Part shown: positions 5,813 through 59,444 of the stretch, piece by piece | How positions within the stretch are numbered: position 1 is the first letter of the stretch | Layout: each line of letters opens with the position of its first letter | IMG/VR virus record: IMGVR_UViG_3300028832_000097 | Coordinates: 1 to 64,000 of that record | Length of the DNA: 64,000 nucleotides | Reading direction: 5' to 3' (one strand) | DNA from: a virus | Lineage: Duplodnaviria; Caudoviricetes | Position numbers and translations under genes: made by a program | The notes under the pieces: generated by a model | Told to the model about the DNA's origin: nothing | Database searches by the model: none | Seen by the model: the letters and a program-made list of their open reading frames with translations, nothing else

Positions 5813-6106
5813 CTATTGCCTCCTGAGAGGTATCTGCAGTGAGATCCGATTCACTACTTGTATCTTCGGAATGTGTTAATTGTAAAAATTCTTCATATGT
5901 TATTGCGCCGCATTGCCAATCGCTTAGTGCACTCATAGTATATCCTCTCTACTGATAGTTATTATTTCTTCCAATAAGATAATGTAGATTTGATGGCGTA
6001 AACGACTACGAGACCGATACAGAAAAATGCAAAAATGGTTTCAGGATTCATAAATATAACCTCCATGTAATATGTTCAATATAACGATTTTAAGTTGATG
6101 ACTGTA

Positions 6107-7453
6107 TCACGCAATTTCACCGTGCTTTTCCATGTAGTTGCTGATGCGCTCCTTGATCTCTTCTTCAGTATCGTCACCACGATACATGTGATCAATCATC
6201 CATTCCAGATCAGACATCTTGTTTCCAGGAAACTTAGATGCTACTGCAAATGCTCTGATCCTGTCAGCAGCTTTGTCCATCTCAGGATAGGAAACTCTGC
6301 ATCTTGTAAGCTCGGTCTGCTTAACATCTCTGAATTCTGTGTGTGCTTTGATTGTCCCTGAAATAAAAATGTCAGCAGCTTCTTTGTAGACAATATTAGA
6401 TGTCCACCATGTAAATATCCTACCCTCGTCGTCGATGAACTTATAAAGATGAGAAGTACCAAACTGGCTATCAGCGGTGGTTACGAGTGTACAATTGTTG
6501 AAATGCAGCTTAACTTTCTGACCTACTTCGCCGTAGTAGTCGGACTTAGCAACTTCAACTTTATGAGCCTCTTCGCGGATCTTAGCAACACGAGCCTTCT
6601 CCACATCTCTACGATATGAAGGAACCATTGAAACTACATATCCGTAATCTCTTTCAGAAACTGCACCTGCAATTGCGAATGACTTAAGATTCTGAAGGTA
6701 ATCGTTGTACTCGTCGATTGTGATGTTCTTGTAATATTCGATGATTGCTGTAGCTTCCTGATCAGCACCTTCCATAAGTTCTGAGAAATTAGCAGGTCTA
6801 TCCTTTGCAGTGTTATTAAGGTAGTTGCGAACACGGATCTTCGTCTGGTTATCTCCCTGGAAGGGGTCAGACTTAACAAAACCAAATTCGTCAACTGCTA
6901 CGATAGCTGCAGCAATTACTTCGTGAAGGTCTGTGTAACGTGTAAGCGTAGATGTTGTATAGGGTGCTTCACCTTCAATAAGCTCATCGAAGAGTGCAAT
7001 GTAGCTTGCTGCCATATCTGCAGATAAACCACCGGTGAAATCGCAGAGGCAAGAAGATCCAACCTGTTTGAATTCATCAGTATCTACATTGTGAACAAGA
7101 TAGGTGTCCTTGCGGGATCTCTTGATGTTGCAGTGTTCGCAGATGCATTCTGTATGAAGATATCTTTCAGGAACTTCAAGTGTTGTGGTGTTACGAATGA
7201 TGTTAATACCTTCGGAAAGATGTTCAATAGTTCCGACGAATTCCCAACCATTGATACGTGCAGTACCTTCAGCTTCAACAAGGATAAACTTCTTGAGAAA
7301 CTTGATTTTGTTCTCGTCTACACTCTCGACGTATTCTTCGCCAACGCGTGCATAATAAAAATCGCATCCGTAACGATTACACTTGTTGCGGATACGAGCG
7401 ATTTTCTGTTCGAGACGATCGATGTTACCTTCGTAAATCTTGTACTGTGTCAT
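6107..7453 (-). CDS. hypothetical protein with a CxHC zinc motif and a C-terminal OB-fold-like domain
   Basis: Start moved to MTQYK (GGAGG RBS). CEHC..R.R...GSSC motif; GEVGQK...FG....Y.F.D..G....W..S...GTIKAH resembles an OB fold. Confidence 0.55.
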   Translation of the reverse strand: MTQYKIYEGNIDRLEQKIARIRNKCNRYGCDFYYARVGEEYVESVDENKIKFLKKFILVEAEGTARINGWEFVGTIEHLSEGINIIRNTTTLEVPERYLHTECICEHCNIKRSRKDTYLVHNVDTDEFKQVGSSCLCDFTGGLSADMAASYIALFDELIEGEAPYTTSTLTRYTDLHEVIAAAIVAVDEFGFVKSDPFQGDNQTKIRVRNYLNNTAKDRPANFSELMEGADQEATAIIEYYKNITIDEYNDYLQNLKSFAIAGAVSERDYGYVVSMVPSYRRDVEKARVAKIREEAHKVEVAKSDYYGEVGQKVKLHFNNCTLVTTADSQFGTSHLYKFIDDEGRIFTWWTSNIVYKEAADIFISGTIKAHTEFRDVKQTELTRCRVSYPEMDKAADRIRAFAVASKFPGNKMSDLEWMIDHMYRGDDTEEEIKERISNYMEKHGEIA

Positions 7454-13375: not shown

Positions 13376-15208
13376 TTAAGTTACTATGTACTCCCATCTC
13401 ACAACTCCTGAATCATAAACACGAACAAATCCATGATTCTCCATGATTTCTTTCTCGGTTTGATGCTCAATATCAATTGTATCATCTTTAAGTAGTGATT
13501 TTAAAAATTGCTTTTGGCAGCTAACTCTATGATAGTATTTGGTATCATCTTCACGTGCCCAAACGTAACTAGGCTCGGTTAGATGCTTTGATACGAATCC
13601 TAATTTTGTGTATAGATTACCCTTTGTGTGTGCAAAATCAGAAAACGAAATGATTTTAGATGCAGTATAATTGCGCAAGAAATACTTAAATAATTTATCT
13701 GCACCACCTGCAATGTTACATTCAAGTTTTGTACAGAATCTAGAAAGTTCCCATGTATCTGTATCATCTTTAGAATTAGTACCCATTGTCTTACGAATGT
13801 GCCCGAAAGTCATAACAGCTACAAGTTCATCTGTTGAATTTAACCTCAATCCAAATCGTACTTTAGAATTAGTGTAACCTTGGCGATGATTCGCATCTAA
13901 AAATTCTTTGCATTCTAGATAAGATATTTCTTCTACATGTGTATTTCTTGCACCATATTTTGTAGTGTTTGCATGCAGTAGATTAGATAGCATTGATTTG
14001 ATAATTTCAGGTTTAGCTAACCATTCATATCCAAATATGTGGAACAAGAAAACATCATGCTCTTTACAAATATTAGATTTGTTTTGGTGATACTTATAAT
14101 GTTTAGGAGTTTCATGCTTAAATCCGCCTTTAGATGCATTGTGAGTGAATGCAGGATTGCATTCAATTCCTAGATTAAATTCAGGTAGATAAAAATCTAA
14201 TTCATAAGGGGCAATAATACTTCGATTATTTCGAAGAATTGTAGCATTCGGCACAATTGTTTTAAGGAATTCATATACATCTGTCTCTATCCAACTATAA
14301 GATTTAGCAATCAGATTGCTACAATTATGCTCCACAAGTATATCGTATATTGGGGTATCTGTTACACCTAAGGCAGTTCGAAGTTCTTGTATATTGGGTG
14401 CATGATCAAAATTCCTCAATATGTAATTTACCGGATCAGATTTGAAACTCATGTATTCCGATACTTTTGAAGGATCTAATATCTTTTTAGCATATGTATT
14501 TTCAGAAAGTGGTCTCCCATTAGGATAGTGTGCCTTATATGTTGCTAGCCTCTTAGCTTTTATATCAGGGTGCATAGGGGGAGATGTAAACCCATATACA
14601 TTTAAATTAGAAGCAGCTCGACCTTTAAGATATCTATCACTATTCATTATTTGCTTGAGCTTTTTTCGAATTTCAGGAGCTTGAGATACATTTTTAACCT
14701 TGTAAGTCATCATACATTTGTTTTCACGCCTAGTCCTTACTTCTTCTGAGCTATTCCGCTCACTGATCTTAGCTCTAACCCAATCTAGTTCGCTGACATT
14801 ATCTACACCATAAGTGTCCTTAACAGTACGATGGTGTAACTCTTCAGCACATACTTTTGAACATGTTTGCGGCTTCTCATTAGGGGAGCAAGTATATTCA
14901 AATTCATTACCGCATATTGCACATGTAGATTTATGAGGGCCTTCGCAGTAAATTTGACCAGGACTAGTACGCTTAAATAATTTACCGCATTCAGGGCATT
15001 CTTGTTCCACAAATCGAGAAATCATTGTTTCCTTTCGCAACGCCTTTGTGCATTCCGGAGAACAACATTTATGCGGTTCACTAGGTTTTCCATATGCTAC
15101 AGGTTTGCCGCATCGAGGACAAGGTCGATAGTGCGGTCCATTACAGTACACACCGTTGCCTACACGGTCAAATTCTTTCCCACAAATCTTACACTTGAAT
15201 TTTGACAT
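13376..15208 (-). CDS. zinc-finger-repeat endonuclease with a C-terminal GNAT/Mom-like domain (Hef-like homing endonuclease architecture)
   Basis: Repeated CxxCGK.F...YC.GPH; YGVDNVS repeats; ELDFYLPE...IECN PD-(D/E)xK-like core; FLDANHRQG, ELSRFC, GGADKLF, ISFSD...GNLY..LGF and VYDSG motifs. Confidence 0.7.
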   Translation of the reverse strand: MSKFKCKICGKEFDRVGNGVYCNGPHYRPCPRCGKPVAYGKPSEPHKCCSPECTKALRKETMISRFVEQECPECGKLFKRTSPGQIYCEGPHKSTCAICGNEFEYTCSPNEKPQTCSKVCAEELHHRTVKDTYGVDNVSELDWVRAKISERNSSEEVRTRRENKCMMTYKVKNVSQAPEIRKKLKQIMNSDRYLKGRAASNLNVYGFTSPPMHPDIKAKRLATYKAHYPNGRPLSENTYAKKILDPSKVSEYMSFKSDPVNYILRNFDHAPNIQELRTALGVTDTPIYDILVEHNCSNLIAKSYSWIETDVYEFLKTIVPNATILRNNRSIIAPYELDFYLPEFNLGIECNPAFTHNASKGGFKHETPKHYKYHQNKSNICKEHDVFLFHIFGYEWLAKPEIIKSMLSNLLHANTTKYGARNTHVEEISYLECKEFLDANHRQGYTNSKVRFGLRLNSTDELVAVMTFGHIRKTMGTNSKDDTDTWELSRFCTKLECNIAGGADKLFKYFLRNYTASKIISFSDFAHTKGNLYTKLGFVSKHLTEPSYVWAREDDTKYYHRVSCQKQFLKSLLKDDTIDIEHQTEKEIMENHGFVRVYDSGVVRWEYIVT

Positions 15209-15293: not shown

Positions 15294-17096
15294 TTAGGTA
15301 TTTATTACAACTACATATTCATTATTGCTATTTAAGTGTGAAGAATTTTTCAAAACTTCTACAACATTATCTTTATACAGTTGAGTATCATCTACTACAA
15401 ACACGTATCGTTTACAAGTTATTCTATCTAACACTACTTGTATCCATTCGTCACAAGATTTAATAGTCATATTATCAAAATATATCTCCTTATCCGCATA
15501 AGGAGGGCAAGTTAATACACAATCAAATGCAATATTATCATATGACAACACATCCTTGCAAGACACTTCACCTTGTAGCGCAAGTTCACGTATTATGTTA
15601 TTTGCTTCTGTTACAACTATAGAATTAATATCAGACCCAATATATTGCTTCCCTGCAGCACATACGCCTAAGAGCCTTCCGGAAAATCCCGAAAATGGGT
15701 CAAAAATCGAATCAAATTCAGATAAATACTTAACCGTAAGATACTTAGCTAATACAGGGTTGAATACTGAAACTTTTGGAGCGATTTTAGAAACATTGAA
15801 ACCTTGCAAAACTTTACTAGGATCCACATTATTCTGATAGATTATTCTGTTTGCGATGCATTGTTTGAGTAATGTATCGTCATTCCATGCATCGTAAGGA
15901 GATACTTTATTCTGGATGTGGCACATGTATATAGAAGTATGATACTGTTGTATAGATGATACTCCAAGTTTGCAATACGGATTATAATGTTCACAGTCAT
16001 ATTTACAAAGTTTTGCATAATCGGAATGTATGCGTTTAGTTGAATATGTAAATTTTGGAAATCCATTGGCCCGGCACCAGAAAAACAGATCAGTATCATA
16101 AGAAAATATATTGTTATCCATTTGTAGTAGTAGTTTTTGTAAATTACGCAAACCTCGTTCAAAGTCTGATTCTATGATGGCTACGAAAATATGATCGGCA
16201 GGTATAAGTGCTAGCCGAGTATCATCATAGTCATCTCGGACTTTTCGGCCATCAGGATCTTCCAAATAAGAATGCCAATAAATACCATCACAATCAATTA
16301 GTATCTTATACTTGGGTAAGTAGACATCAAATTCATGCACAATATTGTTAGATTTTAACACATGATGAACTTGATATTCAATATTATATTGGTCCAGCAT
16401 ATTGATGAGCCGAATCTCAAGAGAGCTCATATTAGCGGAATTCCTTGATTGTTTAGAACGCAATGCGCATGACTGCATTGCAAATGGCACACCATACCGC
16501 TGCAGGTTAGTTTCAGCAGTAGCTTGCCTGCACTCTGAACTATTTATTCTCTTTTGTATTTTCACCCTAACTTCTGGAATTTGGGCAACGTTAGTATACT
16601 GTGTTCCGTATTTTTCCTGAATGGTTTGAATTTTATATGATTCAGAAGCTACTGCTGAATCGTGTAACTTTGACCTCACTGTATCTGATTGTGACACCAC
16701 GCTCACATTGTACTTATCTAAACATGTTTGCTCTCGTAGCTTATTTGTACATTCTGTAGAACATCCTGGAGTAGGCTGATATGGATACTTAATTAAAACA
16801 GGTTTACCGCAAATAGGGCAAGGCTTGTAATGCGGTCCGTTGCAATATAGCGTAGTATTACTGATAGGATGAAATTCTTTCCCGCACAAGAGACATATAC
16901 GTGTTTCGTTTGAGATAGATTGTTTCCGCAATGCAGCTTTACAGGCTTTTGAACATGTTTTAGGAAAATTAGTCATTGTCGATATTGTATATTCTTTACC
17001 GCATATTATACATTTAGCAACATGAGGTCCTTTACAATATACTTGTGTACCTTTTGCGTCAAATTCATTACCACAGTATTTACATATTCTTATCAT
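15294..17096 (-). CDS. zinc-finger-repeat Vsr/DUF559-like endonuclease fused to a DNA amino-methyltransferase
   Basis: Start moved to MIRICK (AGGAGG RBS). Same zinc-finger repeats; EFDVYLP...IDCDGIYWH nuclease; MTase motif I DPFSGFSGR and motif IV TCPPY. Confidence 0.7.
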   Translation of the reverse strand: MIRICKYCGNEFDAKGTQVYCKGPHVAKCIICGKEYTISTMTNFPKTCSKACKAALRKQSISNETRICLLCGKEFHPISNTTLYCNGPHYKPCPICGKPVLIKYPYQPTPGCSTECTNKLREQTCLDKYNVSVVSQSDTVRSKLHDSAVASESYKIQTIQEKYGTQYTNVAQIPEVRVKIQKRINSSECRQATAETNLQRYGVPFAMQSCALRSKQSRNSANMSSLEIRLINMLDQYNIEYQVHHVLKSNNIVHEFDVYLPKYKILIDCDGIYWHSYLEDPDGRKVRDDYDDTRLALIPADHIFVAIIESDFERGLRNLQKLLLQMDNNIFSYDTDLFFWCRANGFPKFTYSTKRIHSDYAKLCKYDCEHYNPYCKLGVSSIQQYHTSIYMCHIQNKVSPYDAWNDDTLLKQCIANRIIYQNNVDPSKVLQGFNVSKIAPKVSVFNPVLAKYLTVKYLSEFDSIFDPFSGFSGRLLGVCAAGKQYIGSDINSIVVTEANNIIRELALQGEVSCKDVLSYDNIAFDCVLTCPPYADKEIYFDNMTIKSCDEWIQVVLDRITCKRYVFVVDDTQLYKDNVVEVLKNSSHLNSNNEYVVVINT

Positions 17097-17167
17097 GGTA
17101 TTGCCTCCTATAAGGATATTGTGTAGATAAAAGGTTACACCAAACATGTTACCTCGAATAACGATTC

Positions 17168-18148: not shown

Positions 18149-18177
18149 TAGACAAATCTGTGTATCTAATATATTAT
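18149..18177 (+). promoter_or_regulatory. sigma70/sigmaA-like promoter for the + strand endonuclease
   Basis: TAGACA-N17-TATTAT, 34 nt upstream of ATG 18211. Confidence 0.5.
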
Positions 18178-18210
18178 TATTATACAATAACTTTGAGAAA
18201 GGTAATTACT

Positions 18211-19854
18211 ATGAAATATAAACGAATATGCAAACTATGCGGACAACTATTTGAATCAGACTCACCGTTGAAACGATACTGTAATAAAGATCATTATGCT
18301 ACATGCGAAATATGCAAAAATCAATTTGTTTGGAATCATGCAACCGAACCAAACTGTTGTTCCACAAGGTGTAGAAATATCAAAAAATACGGAGTGGAAC
18401 ATCCTATGCAATCTAAAATAGTGCAAGAACATCATAAACAAAGTATGAAACAATCATATGGAGTTGAACATGCATTGCAATTAGATAAATTCAAAAATAA
18501 GGCCTCAAACACAAATAAAGACAGATACGGAGTAGAATGGGTGCAATCCAACCCAGAAATTAAACAGAAATCCAGGAACACTATGAAAGAACGATATGGT
18601 GCAGAAACTACGCTACAATCGCAGGAACTCAGCAAGAAAGCTAGGCAAACAATGCAAGATCGATATCATACAGATAATCCTATGAAGGTTGAAAAATTCA
18701 AACAATTAGCTAAACAAACAAATACATATAAATATGGTGTAGAAAACCCGATGCAAGCTGTAGATATAGCAGAAAAATCTAGAATTAATCGGCTTAAAAA
18801 TATAGAAACAACAACACAGCATATTAAAGATACATTTTTAGAAAAATACGGAGTCGATAACCCCTCTAAATTGCCAGAAGTTCAAGAAAAAATATCTAAC
18901 AAACTCAAAGAGAAATATCCGGAATTTCAACCAAAAATGATAGACACTAATATGGGTAAGTACGGGGTACCGTTTTATTGTATGTCTGAAGAATGTCGAA
19001 AACTATCTGGATGTGCTATTTCTAAAGTGAATCAAAGATTTTCCGAGGAATTAGACCAAAGAAATATTGAACACAGCGTTGAATTTACACTAGAACGTTA
19101 TTCGTATGATGTCAGAATAAATAATACATTAATTGAAATCAATCCGACGTACACACATAACGTGGTAGGTAATCATTGGAATGCTCCTGTTGATTGGGAC
19201 TACCATCTTAAGAAAACACAGATAGCTAATAAGCATGGATACAGATGTATACACGTATTTGATTGGGATGATCAAGAAAAGTTGCTGAATATGTTATCGA
19301 ATCCAAAGTATAGAATATCTGCACATAAGTGCAGCATATATGTATTAAATACAAACATAGGATCTCAATTTCTCAATAGATACCACCTGCAAGGTGCATG
19401 TAGAGGACCTCAATTATATCTAGGATTAGTATATCAAACTAAATTAGTATATGTTATGGCATTCACAACACCTAGATATAACAAGCAATATGATGCAGAA
19501 TTAGTTCGGTTCTGTTCACACCCAGAATATAAAGTTTTCGGAGGTGCTAGTAAATTATTTAAGTTTTTTATAACAAATTATGAAGTTACGTCTATAATAT
19601 CATATTGCGATATTTCAAAATTTACAGGAGATACATATGAACACCTAGGTATGCACTTACTCAAGTCTACACAACCACAAGAAATATGGTCAAGACATAA
19701 AAAACACATTACAGCTAATTTACTGCGTGCACATGGATATCAACAACTTGTGGATTCTACAGGAGATCCAAATAAATCAAATGAGGAAAATCTTTTAGCT
19801 GACGGATGGTTACCAGTATATGACTGCGGTCAAGCAGTTTATGTGTTTGAGTGA
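18211..19854 (+). CDS. free-standing Hef-like homing endonuclease with KYGVxxPMQ repeats and a GNAT/Mom-like C-terminal domain
   Basis: Only convincing + strand gene. Zinc fingers; about 8 (K/R)YGVE(H/N)P repeats; YDVRI...IEIN nuclease core; FLNRYHLQG, ELVRFC, GGASKLF and VYDCGQ motifs. Confidence 0.75.
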   Translation: MKYKRICKLCGQLFESDSPLKRYCNKDHYATCEICKNQFVWNHATEPNCCSTRCRNIKKYGVEHPMQSKIVQEHHKQSMKQSYGVEHALQLDKFKNKASNTNKDRYGVEWVQSNPEIKQKSRNTMKERYGAETTLQSQELSKKARQTMQDRYHTDNPMKVEKFKQLAKQTNTYKYGVENPMQAVDIAEKSRINRLKNIETTTQHIKDTFLEKYGVDNPSKLPEVQEKISNKLKEKYPEFQPKMIDTNMGKYGVPFYCMSEECRKLSGCAISKVNQRFSEELDQRNIEHSVEFTLERYSYDVRINNTLIEINPTYTHNVVGNHWNAPVDWDYHLKKTQIANKHGYRCIHVFDWDDQEKLLNMLSNPKYRISAHKCSIYVLNTNIGSQFLNRYHLQGACRGPQLYLGLVYQTKLVYVMAFTTPRYNKQYDAELVRFCSHPEYKVFGGASKLFKFFITNYEVTSIISYCDISKFTGDTYEHLGMHLLKSTQPQEIWSRHKKHITANLLRAHGYQQLVDSTGDPNKSNEENLLADGWLPVYDCGQAVYVFE

Positions 19855-41917: not shown

Positions 41918-43171
41918 TTATGAGAATGAAATTCTCAATGGGCTAACGACATGCCCTCTATCCCATTGCTCGAAAGCGTTTGGGACTACTTTTTTCATTA
42001 TTTGATATGCACCGTTGATATCTGCATTGATTAGCAGCCCTTCATTTGATTTGAATAATCCTCTGTGAACCCTTCTAGATTTGTTATAGTAATCTTTGTT
42101 AGGTTCTTCACCATCTAAAAAGCTAGTTCCGCTAGTGTATGATTCTTCTGTACAGATTGTATCAATTCCATTAACTTGACCTTTATATTTCACCATATCA
42201 ATAAATCTAGTATGTGGAATATAGACGAAATTCTGATTAGTTCTACTTCCCAGATTGATAGAGCCTTTCCAGCTATCATTCTTACCGATAATTATTGTAT
42301 TGATATCATTCTGAACGCAATATTCAATCAAGTATTTAGAAGCACAATGTAAGTAATCTTCAATCTTCCGACGTCGCTTTTCAGTTAATCTATCAAGACG
42401 ATGTGTCCAATCTAAGTTATGACGGATCTTTGCTTCTGACCTCAATTCTGACTGCTTCTTGTTATAATATTGATTTATAGATTTTAGACTCTTGCCATTG
42501 ATAACAAACGGGTGCAAACTTTGATCGTTTGTCACGCAAGCTGCTAGATTATCTAAACCTAAGTCAATACTTAAATATCTAGAATTGTCAGGCTTGGTAT
42601 CAGGAACCTCAACAGTGTATGCTATAAATATTTCAATTTGATACTTCTTAGAAATTATTTTAATCTCGTTGACTCGCTGAAATCCTTCTTTGTGGAAACA
42701 AGCAGTATAGATTTTCAATCCATTGAATTTCTTCGGCAGCTTGAAAGAACCGTCGGGTAATAGGTATGCGCTATAATCTCTGCCATTAGGACCAGTTGTA
42801 ATTGTAAATGGATATCTACCGTCTTTTTTCAGATACTTTGGTATTTTAGGCTCTCCTGGATATTTATCTGGATTCTGTTTCCAATTTTTATGAGCTGCAA
42901 AGTAAGCTTTCCAAGTACTGGATACTTGCCTTAAAACTTGTTGAGCAGAAGCCATATCTAACATGTTCCGATAATCTCGATATTCTGTATCATCTCGAAG
43001 AATGGATTCAAAATTTGATGCAAACTGAAAATTTTCATTAAACAGTGAGTGCCTTGTGAGATAAAGAGATTTGTTATATAGATTTTTAGCTCTAAAGCAC
43101 AGATCGTCTAATTGTTCAAATCGTGGATCAGATTTAGTTACTATTTGTCTTTCAGTCAACTTAGTCTTCAC
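41918..43171 (-). CDS. tnpB: IS607-type TnpB RNA-guided endonuclease
   Basis: AKNLYN, RuvC-I SIDLGLDN, IIIGKN, TEESYTS and RuvC-III NADINGA; AAAGGAGG RBS. Confidence 0.92.
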   Translation of the reverse strand: MKTKLTERQIVTKSDPRFEQLDDLCFRAKNLYNKSLYLTRHSLFNENFQFASNFESILRDDTEYRDYRNMLDMASAQQVLRQVSSTWKAYFAAHKNWKQNPDKYPGEPKIPKYLKKDGRYPFTITTGPNGRDYSAYLLPDGSFKLPKKFNGLKIYTACFHKEGFQRVNEIKIISKKYQIEIFIAYTVEVPDTKPDNSRYLSIDLGLDNLAACVTNDQSLHPFVINGKSLKSINQYYNKKQSELRSEAKIRHNLDWTHRLDRLTEKRRRKIEDYLHCASKYLIEYCVQNDINTIIIGKNDSWKGSINLGSRTNQNFVYIPHTRFIDMVKYKGQVNGIDTICTEESYTSGTSFLDGEEPNKDYYNKSRRVHRGLFKSNEGLLINADINGAYQIMKKVVPNAFEQWDRGHVVSPLRISFS

Positions 43172-43222: not shown

Positions 43223-43669
43223 TTAATTATTTTCTTCTATCAATTCCTTTATTTTCTTTCTAGTATTCCGCTTAGAATATAATTTCATTGAGTAGCAGTG
43301 TAGCAAGCTAATAATTTCTTCAAAGATTTCCTCACTGTCTAGCTTTGGAGATCCTACTTCGCTCATAACTTCTATTTCACAGTTGTATTTCTTAAAAAGG
43401 TGATAGAATAGATCAAATCCTACTCTAGATAATCTATCTTTGTAGGAAATAACAACTCGTTCAACTCTCCCTTCGATAACATCGTCAAGCATTTCAAAGA
43501 ATTGTGTTCGTTTCTCAAAACTTATTCCGCTTGCAATGTCTGAATAGATAGCTGATATGGAATATCCTTGATTAAAGCACCATTGCCTCAACATCTCTAT
43601 TTGATTTTCGAGATCTTTCTTTTGAGTAGATGCAGAAACTCTAGCATAAATATAAGTCTTGCGCTTCAC
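43223..43669 (-). CDS. tnpA: IS607 serine recombinase TnpA lacking its N-terminal HTH
   Basis: YARVS..Q..DL.NQ, DIASG and DRLSR.GF. The in-frame upstream remnant DVYKIAYGNV runs into a stop inside the previous gene. Confidence 0.85.
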   Translation of the reverse strand: MKRKTYIYARVSASTQKKDLENQIEMLRQWCFNQGYSISAIYSDIASGISFEKRTQFFEMLDDVIEGRVERVVISYKDRLSRVGFDLFYHLFKKYNCEIEVMSEVGSPKLDSEEIFEEIISLLHCYSMKLYSKRNTRKKIKELIEENN

Positions 43670-56741: not shown

Positions 56742-56772
56742 AAAAAAAAACATAGACCACTAGGCCTATGTT
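56742..56772 (-). terminator. Rho-independent terminator
   Basis: CATAGGCC-tagt-GGTCTATG followed by T9. Confidence 0.75.
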
Positions 56773-56798: not shown

Positions 56799-57302
56799 TC
56801 AAGTTTCAGTGCGCAACCTATCAATTGTATCTACAAGTTCTACTAAATCACCTTCATAATCTAGCAGATTTTTGCGATTATTAGGTACTGTAGGTATTTC
56901 CACATAAGGTATGTCCCACTTGTTGAGTTTTTGGATGTTAAGTGATTTCTTTCCGGATTGGCTTAACTTGTCAATATCTCTGATATCAAGTATGAATGCT
57001 CTTTTATGGGAAATGTATAGTATGATTATTAGTCCCCATACATTTTGTATCTTAGATTTCTTAAGGAGGTTTTCATACTGATAGTCAGATATCAGGCTGA
57101 AATCAAATCTATCTTCATAAGTTGATTTGCTTTCAATATAATATAAATTAGGAGTATGGAAGCACATGAAATCACATATATTCTTGCTACCATATAAACC
57201 GTTCATCTGATCAGGGATTCTATCAATAGAATAGCCCAACTCTGGATGGTCGAGCCACTCTTTAATTTTTTCTTCTGCTTTCTTATGAACGTCGTTACTC
57301 AT
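56799..57302 (-). CDS. recU: RecU-like Holliday junction resolvase
   Basis: E....R.PD...CDF......IESKST....F..IS..Q PD-(D/E)xK pattern. Confidence 0.75.
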   Translation of the reverse strand: MSNDVHKKAEEKIKEWLDHPELGYSIDRIPDQMNGLYGSKNICDFMCFHTPNLYYIESKSTYEDRFDFSLISDYQYENLLKKSKIQNVWGLIIILYISHKRAFILDIRDIDKLSQSGKKSLNIQKLNKWDIPYVEIPTVPNNRKNLLDYEGDLVELVDTIDRLRTET

Positions 57303-57885
57303 TATCTACTTCATTGTCTGGAAAATATGAAGGTCCATACTGCTCCACAAGCTTATTCAATTTACCTTCTACAGCTCTTTCAGCGTGTTCGTAAGATTTA
57401 AAAGACCTTTTATTTACTATCAATTCGCAAAAAGTAGTATTCCAGTAATCAGGCAAATCCGGATATTCAGAATTTATGTGCTGCAAACTATTCTGTTCAT
57501 GTTTTGCATACCTACGCTTGCTACTATCAGTAGCTTCGTGCATAGATAATCTAAAGTCTATAAGTATCTTTCCATCAAGTTCTCCATAACCGTTCTTAAC
57601 CCCAATATAAAAATAAGTAGATTGAGGTGTGATATTATCTAACGGAGATATAGTTCCTTTTTGCTCGAGGAGTAGCACCAATGACGGATTATTTATTATT
57701 TGCTTACGCACAAAATAGATAAAGTTATTCCAATCGGCAAGTACTTGCGTATCATCTAATATGCCCTCACCAATCATTTGAGCAGACTGTACATAATTAG
57801 TAACATCAACAGATAACTCTATGTATATTGTATCTAGAGTTCGTATATCGGATATAAAGTTTGGAAGTACTGTGTAATGTTTCAT
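57295..57885 (-). CDS. leader-like protein (MKHYTVLP...VQSA)
   Basis: N-terminus resembles the long-form leader; 196 aa. Confidence 0.6.
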   Translation of the reverse strand: MKHYTVLPNFISDIRTLDTIYIELSVDVTNYVQSAQMIGEGILDDTQVLADWNNFIYFVRKQIINNPSLVLLLEQKGTISPLDNITPQSTYFYIGVKNGYGELDGKILIDFRLSMHEATDSSKRRYAKHEQNSLQHINSEYPDLPDYWNTTFCELIVNKRSFKSYEHAERAVEGKLNKLVEQYGPSYFPDNEVDNE

Positions 57886-57891
57886 AGTTTG

Positions 57892-58236
57892 TTACTGGTC
57901 TACTAAATAAGCGCCATTTGAATTGTATCGTTTGTCCTTTGCCATAGCATACATCTTAGCTTTTGCTTCTTGCTTAGATTGTGCATATACACATAACGAT
58001 AATTTATGTTCATTGGGTAGTATGAATTCGTATTTATTGACCTCAGGTTCTACATGTGCCTCCTTCACAGAAGGATTTTGTATTTCTACCCATGACTTTG
58101 CGTCCTCGAGATCAATAAATGTTTCTACTACATTATCAAACTCATCTCGAACAATGTATTGATTTCCATCCTTCTCAATGCTGTCATAGGTGTATGAAGC
58201 GCTTATGTACTTTGGAGTTACTCTAAATGATTTCAT
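57892..58236 (-). CDS. leader-family protein (MKSFRVTPKYISAS)
   Basis: Long-form leader. Confidence 0.7.
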   Translation of the reverse strand: MKSFRVTPKYISASYTYDSIEKDGNQYIVRDEFDNVVETFIDLEDAKSWVEIQNPSVKEAHVEPEVNKYEFILPNEHKLSLCVYAQSKQEAKAKMYAMAKDKRYNSNGAYLVDQ

Positions 58237-58242
58237 GACGTG

Positions 58243-58575
58243 TTACCACCGTGGATAATTTTCCTTGAAATCCTCAAACGTATACACCTTAGGTAAGTAA
58301 TTATCGTATCCAGGAGCTACAGGTGCAATTGTCTCATCATCGAACTTAACTAAATACATGTAGTCTTCACTAGAATAATTATCACGAGGAATCAATGCGC
58401 AGATTATTGTACTATTAGGGAAATGACGATAGATCCTATCTTCAAAATAATCGGACTCATAATCGTCTCCGCCGTAATCATTATAGAACTTATCTAAATC
58501 CATACATGTAAAGTATTTGTTCCACCAACCGCGTCTAGATGTTGCAAGTATAGGTGTTTTTCTAAATTGCCTCAT
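58243..58575 (-). CDS. leader-family protein (MRQFRKTPILATS)
   Basis: Long-form leader. Confidence 0.7.
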   Translation of the reverse strand: MRQFRKTPILATSRRGWWNKYFTCMDLDKFYNDYGGDDYESDYFEDRIYRHFPNSTIICALIPRDNYSSEDYMYLVKFDDETIAPVAPGYDNYLPKVYTFEDFKENYPRW

Positions 58576-59075
58576 AGTACAATCTCCCCGGTTTCTACAT
58601 TCTTTATTTCAAAATCTTGGTCAGTGAATTCGTATAATCCGCATTCATGGCATCTCTGAACTTCAAGATCTAGCCTATCAACGCACTCCTGCAATGTGCC
58701 ATATTCGTTACCATACTCACCATATCCTTGTCCGGATATAGGAAGTCCTGTAGCTTTATCAATGACAACAAATACGCGTTGATAAGCTTCAGGAGTTACG
58801 CCACATTCAACACACTCAGATTCACTGCCCCAAATATCTTCTTCTTTTTGAATCCATTCAGGATAGATATCATACTGTTTAAGTTCTTTAGAAGTAAGAA
58901 ATCTATCTAAGTATATAGCAGTAAACCAATGAGGTAGATCCTCCGACTTTAGAAGTGTTACATCTTTAGGAAGTGTTCCAGGGCCTGTGCCGTGTTTTGT
59001 TAAGTAACGATAACCTTCGCCAGGATACTCTCTAGAAGCTTTTACATACTTAGGAGATACTGTAAATTTACGCAT
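58572..59075 (-). CDS. leader-family protein with a DarA C-terminal-like domain
   Basis: MRKFTVSPKYVKAS leader; YRY...G.GPGTLPK...Y.DR.LT..E...YDI.P resembles the DarA_C pattern. Confidence 0.6.
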   Translation of the reverse strand: MRKFTVSPKYVKASREYPGEGYRYLTKHGTGPGTLPKDVTLLKSEDLPHWFTAIYLDRFLTSKELKQYDIYPEWIQKEEDIWGSESECVECGVTPEAYQRVFVVIDKATGLPISGQGYGEYGNEYGTLQECVDRLDLEVQRCHECGLYEFTDQDFEIKNVETGEIVL

Positions 59076-59084
59076 TATGTAACC

Positions 59085-59444
59085 TCACACCTCTTGAATA
59101 TCTTCAATGTTTTTTATTACCCACTTTAACGATTGATCAGTATCTTTTCCGCATAAGGGACAAATACCTGTTAAAGACTCAACAGGTTGATCTGATAGTA
59201 TTACTGCGGAAATAAATATCCCGTGACAGCTTTCGCATTCTGCGATGTAATGGTTTTCGATGTTGTTATCAATTTCAATTGAGGGATCATCCTCTTCAAC
59301 ATCCATCTCCTCCTCTTCAACTTCAGCAGTTTCTTCCTCAGAACCAAGTTCGTCATCATCGAATGCTTCGTCATCAAACATCGGTCTACCGTCAAACCCT
59401 TCATCAGCTGCGAATATAGCTCTATGATGTCTAGAAAGTTTCAT
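59085..59444 (-). CDS. acidic zinc-ribbon protein with a variant leader (RAIFAA)
   Basis: CESC...CPLCG; D/E-rich. Confidence 0.65.
   Translation of the reverse strand: MKLSRHHRAIFAADEGFDGRPMFDDEAFDDDELGSEEETAEVEEEEMDVEEDDPSIEIDNNIENHYIAECESCHGIFISAVILSDQPVESLTGICPLCGKDTDQSLKWVIKNIEDIQEV

Follow-up and report, generated by a model that had tools for sequence, protein, structure and literature searches.

A 167-aa protein encoded by an uncultured phage carries, behind a short N-terminal tag, a small domain that, judging from profile comparisons, very probably belongs to a divergent subfamily of the DarA_C superfamily (Pfam PF18789) lying below the Pfam threshold. For the whole chain, we regard it as about an even call that this is a tag-processed, probably capsid-delivered accessory protein, in which the DarA_C-like domain would be the adaptor and a Cys/His module the payload. 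"DarA_C" is a name by association, and anti-restriction activity of the protein is putative and, in our estimate, unlikely.

The window (the 64-kb stretch of DNA analyzed here) covers positions 1 to 64,000 of an IMG/VR virus record of 170,977 bp, which has a completeness rating of 100%. The uncultured 171-kb phage is a myovirus, with genes for a tail sheath, a T4-type portal, and a large terminase all located inside the window. Genes for a Gp23-family capsid protein and a Peptidase_S77 (T4 gp21-type) prohead protease were found outside the window. These head proteins all scored over the Pfam cut-offs (Peptidase_S77, 34.3 bits; Gp23, 57.1 bits; Portal_T4, 47.5 bits). The Gp23-family capsid gene is on the minus strand (L005:199-1671; G000 77098-78570).

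The target gene is part of a run of small genes with an SNF2-type helicase gene on one side and a RecU resolvase gene on the other, and it has the same orientation as the replication genes (Table 1). Its stop codon and the start of the next gene (58243-58575) overlap. The bodies of the three long-tag genes downstream of it are mutually unrelated, and none had a family match in Pfam, PHROGs, or NCBIfam. The target gene is outside the head module, and its homologues are placed likewise, near genes for RecU and a UvrD helicase; the RecU neighbor is also present in the homologous contigs L003 and L004. Just upstream of the target is a gene (window 59085-59444, minus strand) for a 119-aa product in which two CxxC pairs come after a strongly acidic run of Asp/Glu. 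The product resembles a zinc ribbon; its sole match, to the YnfU zinc-binding family, is weak (E = 0.009), and it may serve as a DNA mimic or a regulator.

Table 1. Features of the target gene, its protein product, and the downstream part of the gene run (positions in the window)
Feature	Position	Strand	Remarks
Whole ORF of the target gene	58572..59075	minus	167 aa, 19.3 kDa, pI 4.7; stop codon counted in
N-terminal tag, aa 1-14 (MRKFTVSPKYVKAS)	59034..59075	minus	Long-form class; ends in V-K-A-S
Domain very probably of the DarA_C superfamily, aa 20-75	58851..59018	minus	Three strands and a helix
Acidic linker, aa 76-94	58794..58850	minus	Little conserved; disorder predicted
C-terminal orphan module, aa 95-167	58575..58793	minus	Conserved Cys130 and Cys143-His-x-Cys146 motif
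Three more long-tag genes in tandem, directly downstream of the target	57295-57885, 57892-58236, 58243-58575 (span 57295..58575)	minus	
RecU-type Holliday junction resolvase gene	56799-57302	minus	Last gene of the operon containing the target
Terminator-like hairpin and T-run	56749..56772	minus	End of the gene run with the target and the RecU-type resolvase

The protein consists of the tag (aa 1-14), a small beta-beta-beta-alpha domain (aa 20-75), and an orphan Cys/His module (aa 95-167). An AlphaFold2 model was built with a 60-sequence alignment and had a mean pLDDT of 74. Residues 1-18 were disordered in this model (pLDDT <50), aa 20-75 formed a three-stranded sheet and a helix (pLDDT ~86), aa 83-94 were again disordered, and aa 95-167 formed a second compact module (pLDDT ~80). 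Near-invariant residues of the domain were Y22, Y24, H28, G29, G31, P32, G33, T34, P36, D38, D46, R58, L60, E64, Y68, D69, and I70. The tag is conserved across homologues P0001-P0006. The C-terminal module has a predicted Cys3-His zinc site. It moves independently, since it stands directly behind a tag in P0007 and behind an unrelated N-terminus in P0017, and no family or fold match was found for it in Pfam, PHROGs, NCBIfam, VIA-align, or the ESM Atlas searched by features.

PHROGs and NCBIfam had no family for the 167-aa protein, and a sequence profile search of the PDB found no match at E ≤1. Foldseek against the PDB and a search of BFVD both gave no match at E ≤0.001; in BFVD, two phage proteins named "Defence against restriction A C-terminal" ranked second and sixth, weakly (E = 0.06-0.2). 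VIA-align against 48,161 chains returned generic small alpha+beta matches only (top Z, 4.2), and neither half of the protein gave a usable match in the ESM Atlas searched by features.

The only Pfam match of the protein was PF18789 (DarA_C), with aa 22-72 aligned to profile positions 4-67 of 70 (E = 0.02, 15.8 bits). This single-sequence score falls below the curated gathering cut-off of 27 bits; a six-frame scan found PF18789 at the same site with 15.3 bits. The family was also matched by eight of 13 close homologues and by 42 of 136 distant relatives (E ≤0.01; best E, 3.1e-5), and a relative in G001 reached 21.1 bits. No other Pfam family recurred among the 136 relatives.

More sensitive comparisons used a bona fide set of DarA_C domains that all pass the cut-off: P1 DarA, a 68%-identical Salmonella relative (P0204), and three Clostridia genes (112.9, 42.6, and 35.3 bits). 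The subfamily domain aligned by hhalign with these five over 52 columns at 95.8% probability (E = 6.9e-9), and 31 controls (a reversed target and 30 column-shuffled ones) gave at most 5.2%. In the reciprocal search, an HMM built from 154 domain copies of the subfamily was run against the 639-aa P1 DarA and matched residues 422-470, which fall inside the DarA_C region assigned by Pfam (residues 411-472). Nearly everything that a word-index search retrieved with the P1 DarA_C region was a near-identical copy of P1 DarA, so it yielded no diversity. An hhalign comparison of the whole-protein alignment with the single P1 DarA sequence gave 0.6%, with the last helix alone aligned, and is superseded by the domain-level comparison.

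The sequence-only reading of this gene had suggested a DarA_C domain from quoted residues and a family pattern. The residues that it quoted are present on the minus strand, YRY..KHG.GPGT.PKD at aa 22-39 and LDRFLT..EL..YDI at aa 56-70 of the quoted stretch aa 53-72, and the family pattern that it gave is a good fit to bona fide members. It had also named the lack of a significant profile match as the outcome that would speak against the assignment; the comparison of profiles is significant, even if the Pfam score of the sequence by itself falls short of the gathering cut-off, so the proposed homology stands. Chance or convergence of short motifs, with the domain as an unrelated new family, could be argued from the Pfam score under the gathering cut-off, the 0.6% whole-protein alignment, and structure searches without a significant match, but this reading is very improbable and largely refuted here by a profile-profile match over nearly the full length and far above its controls, a reciprocal search that falls exactly on the DarA_C stretch of P1 DarA, and the recurrence of DarA_C alone among the Pfam families of the relatives.

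The two groups have several features in common. The domains are of equal length (~55-70 aa) and share, by eye and in the hhalign columns, the same order of motifs: an aromatic-x-aromatic first strand, a Gly-x-x-Pro loop, and a helix with R-x-L-[ST]-x-x-E-x-x-x-[YF]-[DE]-[LI], which in its fuller form reads [YL]-[DN]-R-x-L-[ST]-x-x-E-x-x-x-[YF]-[DE]-[LI]. In both groups, phages and other mobile elements are the carriers, and the domain occurs alone or fused. They differ in the signature, which is K-H-G-x-G-P-G-T-x-P-K-D in this subfamily and M-R-P/L-x-x-x-G in P1-type members, and in the middle loop, which is shorter in this subfamily. The domain is mostly N-terminal and behind a tag in the subfamily, whereas in P1 DarA it is internal and follows DarA_N and the helical capsid-binding domains.

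When 1.84 billion representatives were searched exhaustively with phmmer, at least 275 clusters at 50% identity fell into the subfamily (E ≤1e-3), and nearly all of these clusters align to residues 9-80 only. The subfamily is almost wholly metagenomic. IMG/VR contained 21 loci of it, and the phage genome studied here has a single copy of the domain. A single-protein scan of IMG/VR returned no close relative of the 167-aa protein apart from the phage's own record. Among 50,697 GenBank phage records, tblastn of the protein found no relative and megablast of the 6 kb around the gene found no match. A literature search on the domain name and the tag peptide returned nothing relevant.

In 147 non-close representatives, the domain was N-terminal in 89, internal in 50, and C-terminal in eight. 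A peptide of the MK(R)YIKS type opened 52 of the 89 proteins with an N-terminal domain. Some family members begin with the domain itself, without a tag, which indicates that tag and domain are separable. Partner regions were mostly unrecognized; fusions to LPD11, a polyvalent-protein domain, were among the recognizable ones, and some subfamily members with LPD11 are 700-1361 aa long. P0014, a 250-aa relative, has the DarA_C-like domain in two tandem copies, so the domain can act in repeats. A large probable DarA_C subfamily overlooked by the Pfam model is now added, and the recurrent order of tag, domain, and variable module suggests an adaptor role. A different N-terminus, M-K-P-[IV]-x-I-[LI]-x-K-L-N-E-S, recurs before the same domain in other metagenomic phages (P0028, P0034, P0039, P0056, P0097, and others) and may be a second kind of leader.

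The genomic settings of bona fide DarA_C genes bear on what membership in the superfamily implies. None of the three stand-alone DarA_C genes sampled in Clostridia is in a head module. One belongs to a conjugative element that also encodes a relaxase, a TraG-like ATPase, and NlpC/P60; another is in the early/replication region of a prophage, with Bro-N/ANT, AAA_24, and DnaB_2. The third (L039, G203:C80, ~6019-7072) encodes a 74-aa product directly upstream of an ArdC gene (ArdC-N and MPTase), and the two genes are a possible two-gene anti-restriction unit. These contexts tie the DarA_C family to the establishment of mobile elements and, by neighborhood, to anti-restriction, rather than to capsids specifically.

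Polyvalent proteins of phages and conjugative elements, for which delivery with the invading DNA has been predicted (PMC5512222), are likewise modular and combine small domains, including LPD domains, DarA domains, and ArdC-N (Iyer et al. 2017, PMC5512222). The same authors describe DarA-N and assign no activity to it (PMC5512222). The window's protein differs from polyvalent proteins in being small (167 aa, two modules) and in having neither the MPTase peptidase nor other hallmark domains.

The sequence-only reading had further taken the domain as independent support for an injected anti-defence protein. That idea holds in part: the domain is associated with early-acting proteins of mobile elements, but by itself it supplies neither a demonstrated activity nor a link to the capsid. 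The anti-defence interpretation is weakened because DarA_C is named by association, because the capsid-binding parts of DarA are absent from the protein, and because bona fide genes occur in non-head settings. Taken together, these three points suggest a role of the domain in early establishment or anti-defence of mobile elements, not specifically in capsid packaging or injection. As DarA_C carries no proven anti-restriction activity, the match connects the gene with mobile-element establishment and is no proof of an injected anti-defence protein. For annotation, a DarA_C match by itself should thus not be read as "anti-restriction" or "capsid-packaged."

Evidence that points to the capsid comes from the tag. 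Tags of the short form (~27) and the long form (~20) were found among the 251 ORFs of this genome, that is, on about a fifth of its genes. The leader noted before the domain is therefore real, but the quoted stretch that begins at aa 22 comes after a seven-residue spacer and not directly behind the leader. Of 228 ORFs, 42 had the motif [IV]-x-[ASC]-[AS] among their N-terminal 22 aa, compared with 7% expected. Arg, Ile, and Lys codons of the tag vary synonymously, indicating that selection acts at the level of the peptide rather than of an mRNA site. The N-terminal 90 residues (propeptide region) of the Gp23-family capsid protein contain three to five copies of [IV]-x-[AS]-[ASG], the motif at the end of the gene tags. 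The positions of these copies are conserved in three relatives (L033-L035, 62-71% identity), with the last copy immediately preceding the conserved mature core. T4-type head genes were present in all five of the related phages with tagged DarA_C-like genes that were examined.

These properties recall the internal proteins of T4 (IPI, IPII, IPIII, and Alt), which likewise consist of a short N-terminal tag on unrelated small proteins of one phage. In T4, internal proteins are loaded via short N-terminal targeting sequences that are then trimmed off (PMC9024508), and IPI is an injected anti-restriction protein (PMC5512222). The phage studied here also has a gp21-type protease, a gp23-type capsid protein, and a gp20-type portal. 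The T4 capsid targeting sequence is cut by the gp21 prohead protease at a Glu-ending site, whereas the tag described here is unrelated in sequence and ends in Ala/Ser ([IV]-x-A-S). There are also approximately fifty tagged genes here, compared with a handful in T4. By analogy, the tag fits a T4-like capsid-targeting and processing signal with a predicted cut after Ala/Ser. Packaging of this particular protein in the capsid is a close call that falls slightly on the doubtful side; the place of its gene in the helicase-resolvase run and the untagged family members speak against it.

A protein that is never packaged is a possible, though rather doubtful, alternative. It would be a cytoplasmic early or middle protein whose domain acts in the infected cell, in anti-defence or in the establishment of replication, and whose tag serves another purpose, for example timed degradation, localization, or translational control. 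The position of the gene between the SNF2 helicase and the RecU resolvase in one terminator-bounded run, and of its homologues near RecU and the UvrD helicase, would suit such a protein, as would the existence of family members without a tag. The bona fide DarA_C genes of the prophage early region and the conjugative element, where no capsid is involved, presumably also act in the cell. However, the synonymous tag codons reveal constraint on the peptide rather than on an mRNA site; the end motif of the tag is met again in the capsid propeptides of the phage and its relatives; and all tag-bearing phages examined have T4-type head genes, T4 itself being a phage that loads internal proteins by way of short N-terminal targeting sequences.

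It is improbable that the protein is a structural or assembly helper in the manner of P1 DarA, which would line the capsid interior and set head size or recruit cargo without an activity of its own in the host. P1 DarA is indeed listed as a head-size determinant that is needed for the incorporation of other Dar proteins (PMC9024508), and 55 DarA-Hdf pairs line the P1 capsid (PMC12810830). In the 2026 cryo-EM structure of P1, DarA was modeled at residues 70-382 only, and residues 383-639, including DarA_C, were unresolved (PMC12810830). The capsid-binding regions of DarA (residues 70-382, comprising DarA_N and the helical domains) are absent from the window's protein, in which Pfam found no hexon-binding DarA_N domain. 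There was no match to PF18788 (DarA_N) in the 171-kb genome, in a search that was also silent in its controls and therefore does not prove absence from the genome, and no Hdf homologue was found in this genome. In addition, the C-termini fused to the domain are very diverse, and not all related phages have the domain, which fits an accessory rather than a structural role.

The reading that we favor, a tag-processed accessory protein that is probably delivered from the capsid, can be outlined as follows. The tag would act as a capsid-targeting sequence and be removed by the T4-type prohead protease through a cut after K-A-S. The resulting acidic protein of 17.6 kDa (aa 15-167) would stay in the head until its ejection together with the DNA. 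The DarA_C-like domain would be a small, non-catalytic binding or adaptor module that operates early in mobile-element establishment, as suggested by the places where its relatives occur: P1 DarA, large polyvalent proteins, and small genes that adjoin ArdC or belong to conjugative elements. The payload would be the variable C-terminal module. With 153 aa after the predicted cut, this is a small candidate protein open to restriction-alleviation assays, DNA- and protein-binding assays, and structure determination.

A broader proposal, which we consider speculative and quite unlikely, is that T4-head phages of anaerobic gut or rumen communities have a polymorphic effector family in which the DarA_C-like domain serves as the constant "delivery head." For co-injection, the cleavable tag and the domain would then dock many C-terminal payloads, unrelated to one another, either into the capsid or onto the leading DNA. 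If this were true, it would provide a first function for DarA_C, that of a cargo adaptor, and the C-terminal part of P1 DarA that is missing from the cryo-EM model would be the docking site for the other Dar proteins.

Two further groups of genes in the window are recorded here. Three large HNH/homing-endonuclease-like genes, with products of ~560-620 aa, are clustered at 13376-15208 (minus strand), 15294-17147 (minus strand), and 18160-19854 (plus strand); one of the three is the only sizeable plus-strand gene of the window. A transposase-like gene (phrog_506; 41918-43171, minus strand) and its small neighbor (43223-43669, minus strand) have tagged genes on both flanks, and the pair may be an insertion element.
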